Origin: Candidatus Versatilivorator sp.
Lineage (GTDB): Bacteria; Acidobacteriota; Terriglobia; Versatilivoradales; Versatilivoraceae
Length of the DNA stretch: 64,000 bases
Direction: 5' to 3'
NCBI GenBank assembly: GCA_965207735.1
Contig: OZ242296.1
Coordinates: 1,696,001 to 1,760,000 of the forward strand
Every line of letters starts with the position of its first letter. Position 1 is the first letter of the stretch. Position numbers and translations under genes: made by a program. A model generated the notes under the pieces. The model saw only the letters and a program-made list of their open reading frames with translations. It was not told where the DNA came from and did no database searches. This document shows, in pieces, positions 48,505 through 57,380 of this stretch.

Positions 48505-48666
48505 TGTTCCCCGTTCCCCGCCCCGATCTTGCAGTTGAGCGGCTACCCTGCCGGGCAGCTTTCCGCATGTTACCACAAACTTGGAGCCCCGGAATGTCGA
48601 CCTCGAAATCCCCTGGGCGCCGGCTTGGCGGGAGATATTCCGGCAAAGCGCGAACGGGACTCCTGA

Positions 48667-48720
48667 TTGAAACAATTCAGGGGCAATCCACGAAGTCGCA
48701 CGAAGGGCCACGAAGAGGTT
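48667..48720 (+). repeat. Degenerate TGAAACAA + periodic CACGAAG element
   Basis: TGAAACAATT...ATCCACGAAGTCGCACGAAGGGCCACGAAG resembles the reverse complement of the array units at 50.7-55.2 kb. Confidence 0.65.
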
Positions 48721-48972
48721 GAGAAGCCTCAAGCGGAATGCGCCAAAGGTTGGGAAGGGGGGCAAGATCTCCACCCAGAGCTGCGGGGGATCTGTCAGGG
48801 GGGTAACAGATTAGTCCGCCAAGGGAGTGATCTTACGGAGTGAACCGAGCGCCTTGCCGATGCCCTGGCAAAGCGTCACCGCTGTTCCCGGTTATTTGGT
48901 GTAAAGGATGTTCCCGGTTTGCACCCTGGTCCGGTGGCGCTGACGGGGACGGAAACATCGGCAGGAACAGGA

Positions 48973-49034: not shown

Positions 49035-49760
49035 TCACACCTGCTTCCCCACCCACCTGACTTCGCCGAAAACCTTGGCGCCGCCAGGCCAGGGGACCGG
49101 GTCCCATGCGGGGTTGTCGCTGACCAACCGCCAGTTGCCGCCGGAGTCCCTGTCCATACGCTTGACCAACATGCCCTCATTGGTCTGGAGAACAAAGATT
49201 CGGCCCTCCTTGAGCTGCGCCCGGTTGCGGTCGACCAGAATGGCGGAGCCGTCGGGGAGGGTGGGCGCCATCGACTCTCCCTTGACGCCGACGACAGTGC
49301 ACTGCTGGGGGTAGAGGCCGTTGCGGTCGAGCCAGCTTCGAGTAAAGGTGATATAGCCGGCCACGGACTCGTTCGGCTCTTCATTGGCACCGGCAGCGGC
49401 TGCCAGCTGTTTGATCGCTATGTGGCGGTTTTCGGCCGGGACTTCCGCATCCTTGGGCCGGGGTTGGCCGAGGAGTAGGGTAAGGTCGCGCCGGATGTCT
49501 TCCCGAAGCCGCCGGGCCCAGTCGGGGCGCTTCTCGACAGCGGGCACCCCCTCGGGCGACTCGACGGGATCATCCATAGGGGCTGTCTGGAGCCGAAGGC
49601 CCAGCACACGGCAGATAGCTTCCAGCGAATCCAGGCGCGGGGAGGAGCCGCGGCGGATGTTGCGAACGGTATCGGAGCTACCGGTAGCCAGGATGGACAA
49701 GTGGCGATCGGAAACGCCACACCGATCGATTAGGTCGAGGAGGTGTCGCCGAAAACTCAT
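49035..49760 (-). CDS. CI/LexA-like repressor (HTH + S24 peptidase)
   Basis: N-terminal HTH (..VRNIRRGSSPRLDSL), AAGA cleavage-like site, catalytic VKGESM and LVKR motifs. Confidence 0.88.
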   Translation of the reverse strand: MSFRRHLLDLIDRCGVSDRHLSILATGSSDTVRNIRRGSSPRLDSLEAICRVLGLRLQTAPMDDPVESPEGVPAVEKRPDWARRLREDIRRDLTLLLGQPRPKDAEVPAENRHIAIKQLAAAAGANEEPNESVAGYITFTRSWLDRNGLYPQQCTVVGVKGESMAPTLPDGSAILVDRNRAQLKEGRIFVLQTNEGMLVKRMDRDSGGNWRLVSDNPAWDPVPWPGGAKVFGEVRWVGKQV

Positions 49761-49837
49761 GAGGTAATTATACCACAAAATCGAATAGCAAAAACAAAAG
49801 GACTTGAATCACGGTTTTATAACCGTATAGTAGCGGA
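49761..49837. promoter_or_regulatory. Divergent leaderless promoters with operator palindrome
   Basis: Minus strand: TGGTATAAT, 6 nt, ATG. Plus strand: TTGAAT-N16-TATAGT, 6 nt, ATG. Inverted repeat ACGGTT-TTAT-AACCGT at 49811-49826. Confidence 0.7.
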
Positions 49838-50137
49838 ATGACTCACCGCGAGGTTCTCCTGACCCTGTTCGAGTGCTATTGCCGGAGGGCGAATCTCAGC
49901 CAGGCGCGGGTCTCGACCCTGGTCTTCAACCACGGTGGGCGCATTGCCAGGATCCGGGCAGGGCGGGACTTCACCATCGGCAGCTACGTGCGAGCCCTGC
50001 GGTGGTTTTCCAACCACTGGCCGGAGGAGCTTCACTGGCCGGCAGGCATAGAGCGCCCCCCTCGGGCCGGCCAGCGCGGTGAGGCGGCGGCAACCGCGCG
50101 GGTCGCCGCCCCGGGAAGCGGAAAAGAGGTGGGCTAA
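49838..50137 (+). CDS. Cro-like small DNA-binding protein
   Basis: Divergent from the CI-like gene. The SQARVSTLVFNHG...RAGRD...ALRWFS.HWP...WP pattern resembles phage Cro-like proteins. Confidence 0.7.
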   Translation: MTHREVLLTLFECYCRRANLSQARVSTLVFNHGGRIARIRAGRDFTIGSYVRALRWFSNHWPEELHWPAGIERPPRAGQRGEAAATARVAAPGSGKEVG

Positions 50138-50281
50138 TCCTGCGACAAGTCCCCCCCTGTCGGGCGGAACATTCAGAGAATAACCGACTGATCGTCAGTT
50201 ATAGGCGAACCACGAATAGGCACGAAGACCGATGGACCTCCTTCAACCACAAGGTGTCACGACGTCAGGGGAGAAAGCCCC

Positions 50282-50306
50282 CCGGGAGCGCGGGCGTCCC
50301 GCCCGC
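50282..50306 (+). repeat. REP-like palindrome
   Basis: CCGGGAGCGCGGGCGTCCCGCCCGC, identical to 51100-51124. Confidence 0.8.
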
Positions 50307-50480
50307 CCCAAAGCCTCTCGCAGTCTCGGCCCTCTCCTTCACCCGGGTCGACCGGCTGCAGCATCGCAGGGAAACTGAGCGGCAACCCAAGGGACAGGAC
50401 TAGAGGCCGCTGCACGAAACGCTGACTCAGGCGGGTGCGACTTGATGAAAAATGGGAGTTCACCACAAAAAGCACAAAAG

Positions 50481-50616
50481 TCACAAAACGAATTTCTTGA
50501 TTTTCGAGTCCTCACGATCCGAAGTTGATCCCCATGGCGTCGCGTTGACCGGATGTAGGCAGATAGCGCGGAACTTGTGCGACATGTTCGGGAGTCAACT
50601 CCTTGCAGGCTTTCAG
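50481..50616 (-). pseudogene. C-terminal remnant of a GxxExxY (PD-(D/E)XK-like) protein gene
   Basis: Translates LKACKELTPEHVAQVPRYLPTSGQRDAMGINFGS*GLE/IKKFVL*, matching the GxxExxY ELK..H.AQ...YL......INFG pattern, with an internal stop and a frameshift. Confidence 0.65.
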
Positions 50617-50679
50617 TGTTCTGCTCTTTTTGTGTTTTTTGTGCCTTTTGTGGCCATTCCCGGCAATGGTCCCGCTGCT

Positions 50680-50697
50680 GAATATTGCAAAAGGCTC
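50680..50697 (-). mobile_element. Solo terminal inverted repeat of the IS5-like family
   Basis: GAATATTGCAAAAGGCTC matches the IS TIR at 17/18 positions; no partner end found. Confidence 0.7.
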
Positions 50698-50822
50698 GAG
50701 AGTGAAACAATCAGTAATCGACCATCCCTTCGCGACCTTGGTATCCCGTCGCGGTGAACCTCAGCGCCTTAGTGGCTCTTCGTCGTTCTTCGTGGCCCTT
50801 CGTGGATAAGTCTTTTTCTTTT

Positions 50823-51357
50823 GAGCCATTTGCAAAATTCTTCGGTAAGCGGAATTGATTACCGGGAAGGGTTGTGATCCCCGGGAGGTCGCGTCTGCCC
50901 TCCTCTGGATCGACGGCGGGCGGAGCACTCTCGGGACGCCGCGTTGGCCCCCCTCCGGATCAGCCTTCGCCATTCGGCTCGGCTTCTCCGACTCCCCCTC
51001 AAGGGGGGAGTGATACTTGAGCGCTGAACCAGGCTCCTTGCCTGATTCCGGGGCATGATGTAAATGATGTTCTCGGTTTAGGGTGTCGAGGATGCCCCCC
51101 CGGGAGCGCGGGCGTCCCGCCCGCACCATGTCGGGCACAGCCTTGGCCATCTCCGCCACTCGGATCGACCCGGAACTGCGCCCTGGGTCTGCTTCGGTTT
51201 GACCGTTGAGGTTGCCGCCGACAGGCCGGCACCCTTCAGCACCGGACGAAGGCTCAGCGCCAGCCAAAGGAATGGGGCATAAGGATGCAGGCGGGACGCC
51301 CGCGCTCCCGGGGGGCTTTTGGGCGGCCCGTGCAGATCCGAATTTTGCAAAGGGCTC
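50823..51357. mobile_element. 535-bp non-autonomous MITE with IS5-like TIRs carrying REP modules
   Basis: Ends GAGCCATTTGCAAAATTC / GAATTTTGCAAAGGGCTC, TTTT on both flanks, no transposase. Internal REPs at 50947-51014, 51100-51125 and 51286-51311. Confidence 0.85.
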
Positions 51358-51512
51358 TTTTGTCTCTTGTCGTTTGTTTCAGACAAGCCGGCCCCCGCCC
51401 TGCCGTGCGGATCATTCGAGAGTGAAACAATCAGAAATCGACAATCCTTTCGCGAACTTGGTATCCCGTCGCGGTTAACCTCAGCGCCTTAGTGGCCCTT
51501 CGTCGTTCTTCG

Positions 51513-53506
51513 GTAGAGTCGAGGGGAGGCGCGCCGGCCTTAGATCGAGGGAGTCGCTGTTGCCGGCGGCTTTCGCCACTCGCCGGTGCCTCAATCTCGT
51601 TCCTCGCTGCGTTTCCTCGCCCCCGCTCGTCAAACCGGACGTGCGGTTTTCCCGCATCCGGCTTTCAGTCAAGATCATGCCTTCGCCCTCGGAAGGCTCT
51701 GTGGCTTCGACCCCAGGCAAGTGAGTCCATAGGTTTTCCATAGTCTCTCGTCCGAGAAGCGCACACTCCCCCCGGTCCTCACCTTGTGCTTCCGACAGAG
51801 CCACTGACGCAGCCGCCCGCCCGCGTGGCGGTCGATCGCTCGGTAGGCCGGGCTCACCTGCCCCAGAACGAAGTAGTTCGCCCACCCGGTCATCGCCCGG
51901 TTCAGGTGTTCTACCATCTGTCCTCGAAGCAGCGTCCCGTTCCTCGGCGCCGTCCACTCGCTGATCTTGCGGCAGATGCTCTGGACGCTCGCCTGGCTGG
52001 GTCGTGTGCCGATGTAGGCTCCTTTCCCTTTGGGGCGATAGTTGCGTCCGATGCGATATCCCAGAAACCCCATCGGTTCCTCCGGACACCGCAAGCATCG
52101 GGTCTTCCGCTCGTTGACCGGTAGCTTCAGCTCCTCCATGATCCGCTTGACCGCCGTCAGCATCTCTGCCGCCGGTGCCCTGCCGAGTACACGGAAGTCA
52201 TCCGCATAGTTGACGATCTCCGCACAGAAGCGCCGGGCATATCCCAGCACCTTCCAGCCCAAAACGAAGCGCCGCATGTAGAGATTGCTGAGCAACGGTG
52301 AGATCGGGGCTCCTTGCGGTGTCCCCTTCCGCTCCCGGCGCCCTCGGTTCCGGCGGCGTCTGCCACCCTTCCCGTCGTCCTCCTCCACCGGCATCTCCAG
52401 CCATGCCTTGATGAGCTTGAGCATCCTCCCGTCACTCACGCGCCGGGCAATGCTCCGAATCAGCTCCGCATGCGGAATCTCGCCGAAGTAGTTGGACAGG
52501 TCGCCGTCAACCACCTCCTGGTAACCCCTTTGCAGGAGTTCATGCACGCGTTTGACCGCGTCGTTGGCACTCCGCCCCGCCGATAGCCATATTGCTCCGG
52601 TTGCAGGTCCGCTTCGAAGATCGGCTCCAACACCAGCAAAGCCGCCGTCTGCGCTACCCGGTCCCGTATGCAGGGTATGCCCAAAGGCCGGAACTTGCCG
52701 GGCTGTTTCTTCGGGATCAGCACCTGCCGCACCGGCTTCGGTACGTAGGTTCCTTCCCTCAGATCCCGCGCCAGTTCCCCCAGCCAGCCCTCCACCCCAT
52801 ACGCCTCGATGTCCTTGAAGCCCTCCCCGTCCACCCCGGCCGACCCGCCGTTTCGGCGTACCTGTGCCCAGGCTTCCTTCAGAAAGTCCTCTCGCCACAC
52901 CTTGTCCGACAGCGCATGAAACCGCCGCTTGGGGTCCTCCTTCGCTTTCGCATGTAGCATGGTCTGGAATTTCCGAACCCCCTCTGACCCTGTTAGACTT
53001 TTGTCAGTGGCCACGCCTTGCCTCCTTTCCATGCTGCTCTCAACTCAGGGTCCCTTCCCTCCACCGGCGTTACCCGGCTTCTCCGGTACTACCGACCCAT
53101 CCGCCACCCTGACGGCCCGGCCTGCCCCTCGCGGGGTCCCGGTTGATGTGTGCCGCATCTCCCCCAGGGCTTCCCGTGTTGCTGCCTTCTTCCCCTTCCA
53201 TGCGTGCCAGCGTCACTACCCCGACGGAAGCGGATCGGTGCCCGCGTCGCTCTCTTCCCCATCCGCCAACGGCCTTCCCCTAAAGACAGGAGGGTCGGCT
53301 TCCGTATTGTCCGTTTCGAGGCCTGCTCGACGTTCACTCGCGTTCCGGCCCGCATGCTCGCTGAGCCGCCCTTGGCGGCCCTTGACGCCAGAGTGCTTCA
53401 GACCATTTCGTTACCTCCATGATCCGCCCTGGCTGCTACCAACCGGAGCGACAGTTGTTGGGCGGGGTTCGCACCCGCCAGAAGAAGGCGCCTTTCCACG
53501 GCGCAC
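51513..53506 (-). mobile_element. Group II intron (1994 nt)
   Basis: 5' end GTGCG, 3' end CTCGACTCTAC, domain V AAGCCGGATGCGGGAAAACCGCACGTCCGGTTT (51632-51664). Removing it restores the array unit with no target duplication. Confidence 0.93.
51675..53014 (-). pseudogene. ltrA: Group II intron reverse transcriptase/maturase, frameshifted near 52580; no HNH domain
   Basis: RPLGIP..RDRVAQ, QYGYR / GRSA.DA split across frames (1 nt short of YGYRPGRSA), GTPQGAPISPLL, YADD, GWANYF; AAAGGAGG RBS before GTG at 53014. Confidence 0.88.
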
Positions 53507-53536
53507 TGTCCCTTCGTGGATAAGTCTTTTTCTTAT

Positions 53537-55023
53537 GAGCCTTTTGCAAAATTCGCAGATAGCGGGAATTTTCACGTGGGGAAAGATCAAGGAGGGCAGG
53601 TGGAAGGAGGGGCAAGACCACTGTCTGTTGTATCATGAAGGTGTCTGAACCACATGATGAACGGAGGTGGAACTTGCCCCTTAGGGAAACCCTATCACGA
53701 CACTGGTTCCGGTTTCAACGAGAGCTGTTTCCCCTGCTGGAGGAAGTTTTGGGGCCTCTGGGAGAGCGTTACCAGCGGCTGGTGCAGGTATTGGAGTTGG
53801 TGCGGGTGGAGGAGTTGCTGCCTTACAGTCGGGGCTGGCGTGGCCGGCCGCTGGAGGATCGGGCAGTGCTGGCGCGAGCCTATCTGGCGAAGTCGATGCT
53901 GGAGGTGGCGACCACGCGGGGATTGGTGGAGCGGCTGAGGAGTGAGGGGAGGCTGCGGCGGCTGTGCGGCTGGGAGAGGGCGTGGGAGGTACCGAGCGAG
54001 TCGACCTTCTCGCGGGCCTTTGCGGAATTCGCTGAGAGCGACCTGCCGGGGCGTTTGCACGAGGCATTGCTGGAGGAGACGCTGAAGGGCCACTTGGCGG
54101 GGCATGTGTCGAGGGACTCGACGGCGATTGCGGGACGGGAAAAGCCAGCGGCCAAGGCTGCGCCGGAGGCCAAGCGGAAACGCCGGCGGGGCCGGCCGCC
54201 GAAGGGCGAGCGACGGCCCAAGCGGTTGAGCCGGCTGGAGCGGCAGGGGTCGATGACGCTGGAGGAAATGTTGAAGGAGTTGCCCAAGGCCTGCGACATC
54301 GGCGTCAAGCGCAACGCCAAGGGGCATCAGGAGAGCTGGACCGGCTACAAGCTACACCTCGACGCCATTGACGGCGGGATTCCGGTCAGTTGTCTGCTGA
54401 CCTCGGCCTCGGTGCATGACTCTCAGGCAGCCATTCCGCTGGCGACGCTGACGGCAAGGCGGGTCGAGAGTCTCTACGACTTGATGGACAGCGCCTACGA
54501 TGCGCCGGAGATCCGGGCCTTCAGTGAGAAGCTGGGGCATGTGCCGATTATTGACGTCAACCCCCGCCGAAGAGCTACCTTGAAAGCCGAGCGGAAGCGG
54601 GAGGCACTGGCCCGGCGCTGTATCGGCCAAGTGACTCCCGAGGCGCGGCGCTACCGGGAACGCTCGACGGTGGAGCGGGTCAACGGACGGCTCAAGGAGG
54701 AGTTTGGCGGGAGGCAGGTGAGGGTTCGCGGCCCCGACAAGGTGAGGTGCCACCTGATGTTCGGCATTCTGGCCCTGACGGTGGATCAGTTGATGCGCCT
54801 GACGCTCTGAAGACCGGGTTGCCACCCCCAACCGCACAGCAGGTTCGCCCGCCTCAAGGCCGGGAGAGGGTAAGCTGTGCCTGCGTCCGGCGACCGCTGG
54901 CCATCCGGCCATCAGATTCGGGCTTTTTCCTTCAAAAGGGTCTTTGCAGCTGGGTAGTCACCGCCGGAACATCACTGTTGCCAGCCCAATGTCATGCCCG
55001 ATTCCGAATTTTGCAAAAGGCTC
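53537..55023 (+). mobile_element. IS5-like insertion sequence, 1487 bp, copy 2
   Basis: Same TIRs as copy 1; TTAT target duplication (53533-53536 / 55024-55027); transposase identical to copy 1. Confidence 0.95.
53635..54810 (+). CDS. DDE transposase, identical to 3062-4237
   Basis: Identical 391-aa translation. Confidence 0.92.
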   Translation: MKVSEPHDERRWNLPLRETLSRHWFRFQRELFPLLEEVLGPLGERYQRLVQVLELVRVEELLPYSRGWRGRPLEDRAVLARAYLAKSMLEVATTRGLVERLRSEGRLRRLCGWERAWEVPSESTFSRAFAEFAESDLPGRLHEALLEETLKGHLAGHVSRDSTAIAGREKPAAKAAPEAKRKRRRGRPPKGERRPKRLSRLERQGSMTLEEMLKELPKACDIGVKRNAKGHQESWTGYKLHLDAIDGGIPVSCLLTSASVHDSQAAIPLATLTARRVESLYDLMDSAYDAPEIRAFSEKLGHVPIIDVNPRRRATLKAERKREALARRCIGQVTPEARRYRERSTVERVNGRLKEEFGGRQVRVRGPDKVRCHLMFGILALTVDQLMRLTL

Positions 55024-55157
55024 TTATGTCTTTTTTCGGTTGTTTCAGGCAAGCCGGGCCCCCCGCCCTAGTGTGCGGATCATGCATAGAGTGAAACAAT
55101 CGGAAATCGACCATCCCTTCGCGAACTTGGCACCCCGTCGCGGCCAACCTCAGCGCC

Positions 55158-57380
55158 TTAGTGCCCCTTCGTCGTTCTTCGTGCCCCTTCGTGGATAAGT
55201 CTTTTTCTTTTGTCGTTTTGTCGTTTGTCGGTTGTTTCAGACAAGGCGAAAGCGACGTAGCTTCCGCCGGAGGGGGCTCCGCTCTTGCCTCCCCCGGCCG
55301 CAATCACCACGAACTGGCGCCCCGACACTTCATAGGTGGCCGGGGTTGCGTTTCCCGAGGCCGGTAGCAGAGTTTCCCACAATAGGCGTCCATCGGCCTT
55401 GTCGAAGGCCCGGAACTTGCGGTCGAAGTTGCTGGCGCCGATAAACACAAGCCCGCCCGCCGTCACAATGGGGCCGCCGTAGTTCTCCGACCCGGTCCCC
55501 ACCATTCCCCTTGCCGCCAGCTCCGGGATTTCACCCAAGGGAACCTGCCAGACGATCTCGCCCTTGTCGAGGTCGATGGCGTTGAGGATTCCCCAAGGCG
55601 GTTTCACTGCCGGGTAGCCTTCCGGATCCAGGAAGCGGTTGTAGCCGTCATGACCGTAGGGCAGGCGGTAGAGTGGCCTGCCGGCCCGGTCCGCGGGGAC
55701 CGAGGCGTCCTTGCCGTAGAGAACAAACCCCAGGATGGCCTCCAACGCGTCCTCCCCCAGGTGGGCAAAACCCGGCATGCGGCCCCCGCCCTGGCGCAGG
55801 GTCCGCCGCACCATCTCCTGCGAACGGCGTTTTCCCAGGTCCACCAGCGAGGGAAACTCCGGGGGGGCGCCGCTACGGTCCTGACGGTGGCAGCCGCTGC
55901 AGTTCCACTGGTAGAGCTGCTTGGCGGTGACGGGGCCGGCGACCGCTTCCCTCGCCACCAGCCGCAGGATCCAGGCCATCTCGCTGGAGTTGACATACAA
56001 CCGTCCCGATTCCGGATCGAAAGCTGCCCCGCCCCACTGCCCCCCTCCGTCGAAACCCGGAAAGAGAACGGTCCCCTCCAGACTGGGAGGAGTGAACTGG
56101 GGTCCGTTGCGCAGCTTGCGGAAGCGCTTCAACACCTCCCGGCGCGCTTCCGGAGTGCGGTCGGTTAACAGGTTTTCCGTCAGGTGCTGGCGGGCAAACG
56201 GAGGCGGCTTCGAAGGAAGGACCTGGGTGGCGGCCAGCCGTTCTCCCGGGACGCCGGCGACCGGAACTTTGACTTCCCTGAGCGGGAACAGCGGACGGCC
56301 GGTCACCCGGTCGAAGGTGAAGACGTGTCCGGACTTGGTGATCTGGGCCACGGCGTCAACCGGCCTGCCCTCCCTCACCACCGTCACCAGGCCGGGAGGA
56401 GCCGGCAGGTCCCTGTCCCACACGTCATGCCTGACCACTTGAAAGTGCCAGACCCGCTCGCCGGTTTCGGCCTTCAGGCAGAGCAACGAGTTGGCGAAGA
56501 GGTTGTGGCCGGAACGGTTCCCGCCGAAAAAGTCGAAAGCCGCCGAGCCGGTGGGAACGTAGACCAGGCCGCGCTGCTCGTCCAGGCTCATGCCGGCCCA
56601 GCTATTGGCCCCGCCGGCGGTTTTCCAGGCCTGCCCGGGCCAGGTTCGATGGCCCGGTTCGCCCGGACGGGGAATGGTTCGGAACCTCCAGCGGAGCTTG
56701 CCGCTGCGGGCGTCGTAGGCTCGAATGTCCCCGGGGGCGCTCGGCAGGCTCTCACCCACCGTGCTGCCGAGGATGAGCAGGTCCCGGTAGACAACCCCGG
56801 GCGTGGTCAGAGAAACGGTGATCGAATCGGGTGGCCGCCCCAGGTGGCGCCTCAGGTCGATAAATCCCCGATCCCCGAAGTCCAGGCAGGACTTGCCGGT
56901 GGCCGCGTCCAGGGCATAGAGCCGGTGCCAGTAGGAGAAGTAGATCCGTGCCTGGGCACCCCGGCTCCAGTACATCAATCCCCGAATGCGAACCCTGTCG
57001 CGGGGAGTCCCGCCCGGAATGGACGGCCGGAAAGACCAGATCTCCCTGCCGGTGGCCGCGTCAAGCGCGAAGACCCGCCCTCGGGGACTGGTGGCATACA
57101 GCCGCTCACCCACCACCAGGGGATTGCATTGCATCTCCGAGCCCGGAAAGGCATCCCCCGTATCGTAGGTCCAGGCGACCCGCAATCGGTGCAGGTTGCG
57201 GCGGTTGATCTGAGCGAGGCGGGAGTAGCGGATCTGCCGGTTGCCGCCTCCGTAGGCGCTCCACTGGTCGTGGCCCGCCCTGGGCAGTTCGCGGCCGGGT
57301 TTCCCGGTCCGTGCCAAAGGAACCCAGGCGACCGAAGCCGCAACCGCCAACAAACAGGCCAGCAGTGCACGGTTTTCCAT
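55158..57380 (-). CDS. PQQ-dependent dehydrogenase with cytochrome c domain
   Basis: PQQ beta-propeller repeats (ALDAATG..W), HDVWDRD, CSGCH heme motif and YGGP.VTAGG. The C-terminal tail is encoded by the repeat unit. Confidence 0.88.

Follow-up and report, generated by a model that had tools for sequence, protein, structure and literature searches.

Gene-less companions of insertion sequences (ISs) of the IS110 group, and tandem growth at IS110 loci, are already in print. The closest case is MITEPpu9, the ssr9 module of ISPpu9 in Pseudomonas putida KT2440 (PMC12288879). The window analysed in this study, 64,000 nucleotides of contig OZ242296.1 (forward-strand positions 1,696,001 to 1,760,000; assembly GCA_965207735.1, Candidatus Versatilivorator sp.), contains an array of three ~180-bp units that resemble this module. 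To judge from their sequences, the units are very probably gene-less derivatives of an IS110 element present in 10 copies in the genome; they share both of its ends and would be moved in trans and stacked by a target guide that matches the family's own end. Like them, MITEPpu9 is a non-autonomous module of the IS110 group with an AG core and both ends in common with an autonomous element; it adjoins the IS at a common AG, forms circles in trans and sometimes lies in tandem, and a GCCC-N4-GGGC palindrome is found in the left end. The systems differ in copy number (8 versus about 220 here) and in target, which is a host repetitive extragenic palindromic (REP) sequence in P. putida and the element's own end here. 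Moreover, the bases that directly follow the left AG are required in ISPpu9, while here positions 1-4 are free to vary, and mutating the left palindrome in that system left circle formation intact (PMC12288879). The three units, in window positions, are as follows.

50698-51387, plus strand: unit 1, a mini-IS110 that has lost its left hairpin (subterminal repeat 50703-50710, right end 51374-51387).
51388-55053, plus strand: unit 2, a complete mini-IS110, 181 bp net.
55054-55245, plus strand: unit 3, a complete, uninterrupted mini-IS110 of 192 bp, with its right junction AG at 55244-55245.

The initial annotation of the window had proposed a three-unit array interrupted by a miniature inverted-repeat transposable element (MITE), an intron and an IS. 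Subtracting these by hand from the called element boundaries did return units of 181, 184 and 159 bp in the annotation's phase; the CGCGA/TCGCG hairpin motif is present in all three, the MITE (unit 1) and the IS (unit 2) occupy the identical position and unit 3 is uninterrupted. The units thus exist, but their phase had to be revised: each starts after an AG core and ends with TTGTTTCAGRCAAG, running from the core through an 8-nt linker and a GC hairpin (the 32-33-bp "spacer") to TGAAACAA and on to TTGTTTCAGRCAAG. In unit 2 the left end (51388-51430) comprises the hairpin, a distal 7-mer (51411-51417) and the subterminal repeat (51423-51430), and the right end lies at 55040-55053. Copies of TGAAACAA are found at 50703, 51423 and 55092, of TTGTTTCA at 51374, 55040 and 55232, and of GATAAGTCTTTTTC at 50805, 53519 and 55194. 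Flank profiles display a sharp right edge after TTGTTTCAGRCAAG and, on the left side, only a fuzzy match to the same letters.

In what follows, G000 denotes the genome of the window, other G numbers related genomes, and L numbers loci of homologues. A profile search of the 5.26-Mb genome returned 326 unit matches, 173 of them near full length, at 249 loci; pairing left and right motifs gave 222 end-to-end elements, spread over 128 loci and linked in chains of no more than 7. Units make up about 0.7% of the genome. Matches were obtained in 12 of the 13 other genomes of the genus and in none of 27 genomes outside it. The annotation was right to see a small repeat element, although it recognised neither that this is a dispersed, genus-wide family of non-autonomous IS110 derivatives nor why the units lie in arrays. 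Seventeen minimal elements, 60 or 65 bp long, retain the ends only. The repeats of the units are subterminal and asymmetric and no duplication extends beyond the core, unlike in a classical MITE; this identity was rejected, as was that of a CRISPR-like array.

A search for IS110 recombinases found 10 copies in the genome, encoding 464-468 aa and scoring 222 bits against NCBIfam NF033542 (cut-off 140). Residues D36, E84, D121 and S356 are invariant in 9 homologues; D124 is present in the query protein, yet falls outside this invariant list. The protein thus has the DEDD RuvC-like domain and the conserved C-terminal serine of the IS110 group. Each helper copy starts with the left end of the units and ends, ~23 bp past the stop codon, with their right end; the units, which encode no transposase, have both ends in common with this autonomous element, as expected of non-autonomous derivatives. 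The AG core is found at 65 of 65 homologue left junctions, and, as is usual for IS110, there are no terminal inverted repeats (TIRs) and no target duplication, the core is shared and empty sites are scarless. The shared ends make it likely that the units are moved in trans by the helper recombinase and its bridge RNA, which would put a name to the mover of a repeat family covering 0.7% of the genome. Rolling-circle transposition of the IS91 or IS200/IS605 type, suggested by the CAAG junctions and the hairpin, was dropped as a candidate once the IS110 helper had been found.

The 250-bp left end of the helper is predicted to encode a bridge RNA with two loops, the guides of which match the target and the donor. 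Aligned in sets of 13 and 85 distinct sequences, it forms two arms with internal loops, and double changes affect 31 of the 45 pairs of the predicted RNA; the pair counts of the 85-sequence alignment lean towards the model because that alignment was fitted to it. Single-sequence folding gave no signal (z +1.1), the alignment alone providing one. Guides were compared with their flanks in a set of 65 distinct rows with ungapped guide columns, taken from 88 model matches among 98 loci searched. The 3' strand of loop 1 matches the left flank at 299 of 325 bases (123 by permutation), and the 3' strand of loop 2 matches the right end at 278 of 280 (182 by permutation) in the 56 rows with a right end. 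The crossed guide-flank comparisons in the 65 homologues were not significant, and the 5' strand of the target loop yielded no match, including against the distal motif discussed below. Read from the alignments, the loop 3' strands are the putative target and donor guides, as in the available account of IS621 (PMC11208160), in a flipped frame with the core CT on the lower strand. Contigs of RNA libraries from four runs cover parts of the IS110 and of the units, being strain mixtures that lack ends, strand and level; DNA contigs from four runs have their repeats collapsed and do not span the array.

The resemblance to IS621 is broad: a DEDD plus serine recombinase, a long left end encoding a two-loop RNA, guides covarying with target and donor, a core dinucleotide and short subterminal repeats (PMC11208160, PMC11208158). 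Unlike IS621, as described in those papers, in which the guides read both strands beside the core, here the core is matched by the 3' strand of each loop only, and the donor loop's 5' strand has its match in a distal motif, on the same DNA strand.

The guides suggest how the arrays grow. In this genome the target guide reads AG(A/G)CAAG and the donor guide likewise: the two are identical in 4 of the 10 helper copies and one base apart in the other 6, and the donor guide equals the copy's own right end in 10 of 10 (an eleventh, partial pattern match that has no donor guide was excluded). Correspondingly, the left junction is a family right end for 10 of 10 helper copies and 11 of 11 scored close homologues. 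The target guide spells the right end, and for that reason a new copy likely inserts at this end of an existing one; since target and donor guides coincide or nearly so and all 10 copies sit at family right ends, insertion likely regenerates its own target. In such a scheme a circular intermediate would form and recombine at (TTTC)AGRCA-AG, and the new right end would again serve as target, arrays being built stepwise from unrelated family members. It would be a natural counter-example to the stated rule that the target is destroyed when IS110 inserts.

An alternative is that the arrays grow by recombination through the donor loop only (half-match recombination) or by duplication in place, the agreement between the two guides being incidental. 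IS621 is reported to insert at donor half-sites, the donor-binding loop alone supporting recombination (10.64898/2026.08.31.748434; PMC13626964), and repeat units beside IS110 elements to retain donor-only matches (10.64898/2026.08.14.744561). A lineage with 79-80% identity to the helper speaks to this point: its target guide is GGTCAG, it sits in TGGTCAG repeats and it is found at a right end in 0 of 9 copies (4 loci of a further genome were left unscored by the pattern, two of them looking right-end-type by eye). Position at a right end therefore goes with the target guide, being seen in 0 of 9 cases with a different guide versus 21 of 21 with a matching one. As to duplication, neighbouring units are no more alike than random pairs (0.846 versus 0.847; 47 pairs), in keeping with independent arrival and not with duplication; a unit's neighbour is its nearest relative in just 4 of 94 cases and in none identical to it. 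On balance, growth by half-match recombination or duplication is improbable, although the published half-match activity may add to self-targeting (10.64898/2026.08.31.748434). At the loci of the GGTCAG-guide lineage (L172-L180), insertions lie in short TCAGTGG-type tandem repeats; 60-bp minis occur there too, with target repeats between them.

Self-targeting is further suggested by site occupancy. A left end comes next at 59 of 119 and 55 of 86 sites of the right-end type, as compared with 11 of 464 and 22 of 790 for the remaining occurrences of these 7-mers. Across the clade at large, a right-end-like GTTTC precedes 10 of 62 elements, 7 of which have a target guide equal to some donor guide in the set, so that aiming at the ends of kin appears to recur. 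Among the metagenome homologues L275, L282, L274, L278 and L229, one element's target guide equals another's donor guide, reciprocally so for L275 and L282; by their guides, elements of the L275 type appear to be aimed at the ends of their relatives. At L185 the right end matches the target guide and not the donor guide, and in G000, G002 and G004 two guide variants appear swapped between subfamilies.

Several points weigh against self-targeting. The occupancy figures are inflated by selection against insertions in genes, and near-identity of an element's own two guides is not enriched clade-wide (one mismatch in 7 of 65, against 5.5 expected). The 94% likeness of units 1 and 2 exceeds that of either to its best match at other loci (90% and 93%), and local duplication is therefore possible for that pair. 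Donor-loop-only recombination, as reported in the available text of 10.64898/2026.08.31.748434, could likewise place copies at right ends, and minis do lie at a right end at L187, L199 and L200, the guides of L187, the only one in which they were read, being unlike. Finally, the data are contigs, in which array junctions mimic circle junctions, and no circle, transcript boundary or transposition was observed in them.

Expanded IS110 loci with tandem non-coding units provide a further comparison: they too grow stepwise at one site, with a donor-side match at the boundaries (10.64898/2026.08.14.744561). Repeats at least 95% identical were scored there, and the available text proposes duplication in place and insertion without target regeneration; here, neighbours are ~85% alike, and the coincidence of target and donor guides likely regenerates the target half. 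The IS110 and bridge-RNA literature consulted yielded no description of self-targeting by guide identity or of the fold-back donor considered below; supplements, e.g. that of PMC11208160, may hold such.

The history of the locus can be read from its relatives. In G006, G008, G012 and G013 the target is bare, a Cro-like gene and a pyrroloquinoline quinone (PQQ) dehydrogenase gene being joined directly via (TTC)AGGYARG, with the PQQ protein ending in AFALPED, AFALPVD or AFALPEI. In G002, G004, G005 and G009 the same point is occupied by different family members. Since the bare allele exists in four relatives, the entire 5.1 kb of 50150-55245 is inserted DNA, with only the AG core on both sides. 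The array itself starts at 50150, earlier than annotated, with an older family member; G004, G005 and G009 likewise have a left end at this place. In the window, the left end of the older member is followed by GxxExxY-type arm repeats and a REP-like palindrome, and its right end is lost. The features at the two flanks are listed below.

49838-50137, plus strand: Cro-like small gene with no Pfam match; its stop overlaps the ancestral stop of the PQQ gene.
50143-50149, plus strand: left junction, half of the target up to and including the AG core (50148-50149); the allele of G006, G008, G012 and G013 is empty.
50150-50428, plus strand: older family member with a degenerate left end (hairpin; motif at 50167-50174).
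50429-50697, plus strand: right part of a DDE-type MITE, including the annotated "solo TIR" (50681-50697).
50503-50616, minus strand: GxxExxY gene remnant, inside the DDE-type MITE part.
55158-57380, minus strand: PQQ dehydrogenase gene; its last codons are the former insertion target.

The "solo TIR" is in fact part of the right 270 bp of a 330-340-bp DDE-type MITE; at other loci, complete copies of this MITE lie within the left end of a unit and are flanked by a GAGA duplication (4 of 5 copies examined). At the other flank, the PQQ dehydrogenase has acquired a 28-residue tail read from unit 3 (55158-55245) in place of the ancestral two or three residues. Presence/absence polymorphism with exact boundaries extends to other sites. 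When 1.2 Mb of G002 (about a quarter of that genome) was compared with G000, the two directions of comparison yielded 21 and 20 paired loci. Of 10 sites flagged empty, 4 were clean, 3 approximate, 1 unclear and 2 spurious, a yield that tempers the argument; one further clean empty junction had originally been classed as "other". The site of a 9-element chain in G002 is empty in G000.

The part of the system departing most from IS621 is the recognition of the donor. The 5' strand of the donor loop shows no match to the bases beside the core (91 of 455, 96 by permutation), so the opposite-strand pairing of IS621 is not seen. In the 65 homologues this strand matches instead, in the same sense, a distal 7-mer (409 of 455; 292 expected). 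This 7-mer is found just past the hairpin, 5-6 nt ahead of the subterminal repeat; it is 20-29 bp in from the left end in 62 of 65 rows and 38 bp in one, the other two rows being misaligned. In 31 disjoint sister pairs, chosen by BLAST identity with the two misaligned and two duplicate rows left out, 12 joint changes occurred, all of them concordant, against 7 in the RNA only and 8 in the DNA only (Fisher P 2e-9). By hand count, 16 interior transition mismatches are G-U/G-T-compatible with the lower strand and 6 are not. Among 72 natural end-to-end junctions of this genome, 6 of the 7 distal-motif positions are nearly invariant while the four bases after the core (positions 1-4) vary freely; the distance from core to motif is 24 or 28-29, hairpin length shifting by 4-5 bp. 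The 17 minis of 60-65 bp retain nothing beyond these parts.

That the second donor guide matches a motif beyond the hairpin suggests a folded single-stranded donor. On the simplest reading, the lower strand would fold between the subterminal stem and the hairpin into a ~14-nt bubble, each half of which would be read by one guide. We slightly favour the view that the donor is read as such a folded single strand, both guides lying on the CT-core strand on either side of the extruded hairpin. The main alternative is that an antisense RNA pairs with the distal motif. Folding of the junctions fails to separate the strands, the outer stem forming in 68 of 72 top strands and 66 of 72 bottom strands, and in several copies a 340-bp MITE separates the distal 7-mer from the subterminal repeat, an arrangement that the folded geometry leaves unexplained and that speaks against it. 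Single-stranded IS110 circles have been reported, single-strand excision or integration being described for IS621 and CazIS110-1 (10.64898/2026.08.31.748434; 10.1101/2025.10.25.684509). DNA folding also matters for ISPpu10; there, however, the stem-loop is in the target and the guides pair on opposite strands, as far as the available text indicates (10.64898/2026.03.19.712850).

The chances seem evenly balanced that these features define a widespread clade of ~460-aa bridge recombinases in which an attC-style folded donor, a single 7-nt target guide and convergence of the guides in the present genus combine into a self-renewing landing pad. If so, a 60-bp donor would suffice for iterative, scarless cargo stacking, and the arrays would be the genome's main nursery for nested mobile DNA. 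Together, the junctions and the 60-bp minis make donor strandedness in bridge recombination directly testable, the 72 junctions amounting to a ready-made mutagenesis of the donor and the minis to a compact donor for stacking; the fold-back donor is the part most deserving experiment. In integrons, a circle with one folded attC site recombines beside earlier units, and arrays result. The present family differs in its dispersed loci and RNA-guided enzyme, and no integrase above cut-off and no attC consensus was found; an integron was rejected as an identity on a best TIGR02249 score of 83 bits (cut-off 265) and on an inspection by eye for the attC consensus.

The interior of the units has a different origin. 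Unit positions 103-154 (55156-55207 in unit 3) match, at 76-95%, the arms flanking intact GxxExxY genes in relatives, and other family members contain, by eye, decayed GxxExxY frames; the interior thus appears to be captured cargo, in part the arm repeat of GxxExxY gene cassettes. Such a match, along with one weak Y1_Tnp match in the genome, might suggest that the units are REP-like elements moved by a GxxExxY nuclease or by an HUH enzyme (RAYT, IS91). But this genome has no intact GxxExxY gene, only 5 fragments, and not one of the 30 GxxExxY loci examined carries the two unit ends together. The IS110 element shares the ends of the units and not the interior, which the 17 minis lack altogether. 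No Y2_Tnp match was obtained, in a search whose control was also silent. A nuclease or HUH mover is very improbable, and GxxExxY was rejected as the mover with its match confined to the interior. At L038, L042 and L047, intact GxxExxY genes are flanked on both sides by gene-less copies of their own cassette of inverted repeats, arranged in tandem with A-tracts between them, and each gene subfamily has its own arm repeat.

Units 1 and 2 have in turn received mobile DNA, as follows.

50823-51357, strand not assigned: 535-bp MITE in the T-tract of unit 1, with a TTTT duplication and 18-bp TIRs that are those of the 1487-bp IS.
51513-53506, minus strand: group II intron, 1994 bp, one of 13 near-identical copies.
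53283-53288, minus strand: exon-binding site 1 (EBS1) loop of the intron, UGUCUU, complementary, if G-U pairs are counted, to GGGRCA, the 5' exon end in the unit.
53537-55023, plus strand: DDE insertion sequence, 1487 bp, IS5/IS1182-like, in the T-tract of unit 2, with a TTAT duplication.

The open reading frame of the 1487-bp IS (53635-54810) encodes 391 aa and scores below cut-off against family models (117 of 270 bits for IS1182, 70 of 140 for IS5_4). Enrichment of insertions in the units, anticipated in the initial annotation, was indeed observed: 13 of 43 copies of this IS and 10 of 13 copies of the intron lie in or, for the IS, adjoin sequences that make up 0.7% of the genome. The unit is thus neither unique to the locus nor without preferential insertions. 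Two of the 13 IS copies are the swapped halves of one event. A 4-bp duplication flanks 36 of the 43 copies; 10 of the 11 unit copies that have one lie in the T-tract, where they occur in either orientation and in more than one variant of the unit, and all 36 duplicated sites are 55-80% A+T in a 62% GC genome. Expected insertions in units number 0.3 by length, 1.4 by A+T class and 2.7 relative to AT-matched intergenic DNA, reducing the excess from ~40-fold to ~4-fold (gene calls for the intergenic control coming from a crude hexamer model). The T-tract would thus attract an AT-seeking DDE IS together with its MITEs. At C1:2820668 and C1:4928490 of G000, two copies of the IS have swapped flanks, and their GTAA and TTTT duplications lie crosswise, which betrays a rearrangement between copies of the IS.

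Group II introns are known to home into repeats or IS ends, and their EBS1 may be complementary to a high-copy repeat. The case here is peculiar in that the repeat is the cargo of an IS110 mini and that three sibling introns with three EBS1 loops use three targets. The 13 intron copies are at least 99.6% identical; 10 lie in units at one motif, 1 in a related arm and 2 elsewhere. The UGUCUU loop pairs with RRGRCA, and the CACGAAGGGRCA motif of the unit would be the homing site of an intron with matching EBS1; the sibling introns with a TGAGAA and a TGTAAT loop lie after TTTCTCA and ATTACA, respectively, EBS1 covarying with the target in all three. The EBS1-type motif by itself is insufficient to account for the focus on units, which contain 333 of its 4465 sites; the longer CCACGAAG-type motif does account for it (199 of 215). 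EBS2, sought by eye, was not resolved. In the present copy the reverse transcriptase frame is broken by one missing base near 52574, either a mutation or an assembly error, and intact in 12 of 12 other copies and in the contigs of 4 of 4 runs. An ORF-less ~880-nt sibling intron occurs in G000 after CCCGCATTTCTCA, e.g. at C1:72930 and at 27 or more similar sites; CCCGCATTTCTCA is the terminal repeat of an IS1380-like element.

Enrichment of the IS and the intron is thus largely ascribable to AT-tract preference and EBS1 pairing, a clear case of nested targeting by ordinary mechanisms; insertions in units are likely also tolerated because units are non-coding and redundant. The initial annotation saw the array as a structured non-coding RNA or as a decoy soaking up mobile DNA, retained by the host. 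For the decoy, one can cite the 11 of 36 duplicated IS sites in units versus 2.7 expected (P 1.3e-4; P 0.02 if 7 are independent) and the 10 of 13 intron copies there in spite of the few EBS1-type motifs that units hold. Yet 30 of the 43 IS copies are found outside units, sibling introns whose EBS1 loops differ home into different repeats, and AT preference and pairing with the unit motif make a sink unnecessary. As for a structured RNA, Rfam returned no match in units (two intron families being the only ones in the window) and folding is weak (z -1.9 and +0.3 for the two strands). Retention by the host in either role is very unlikely, 4 relatives lacking any insertion at the locus and 4 others having different contents there. 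The reading as a decoy is unsupported; that of self-targeting, non-autonomous IS110 elements with nested passengers is well supported.

Two minor observations concern the surroundings of the array. A repressor of the S24-peptidase type and the divergent Cro-like gene (49035-50137) are conserved beside the PQQ gene across the genus, with no other phage genes nearby. At 48660-48745, in the gap before a thiolase gene, lies a degenerate inverted CACGAAG arm copy with TGAAACAA.

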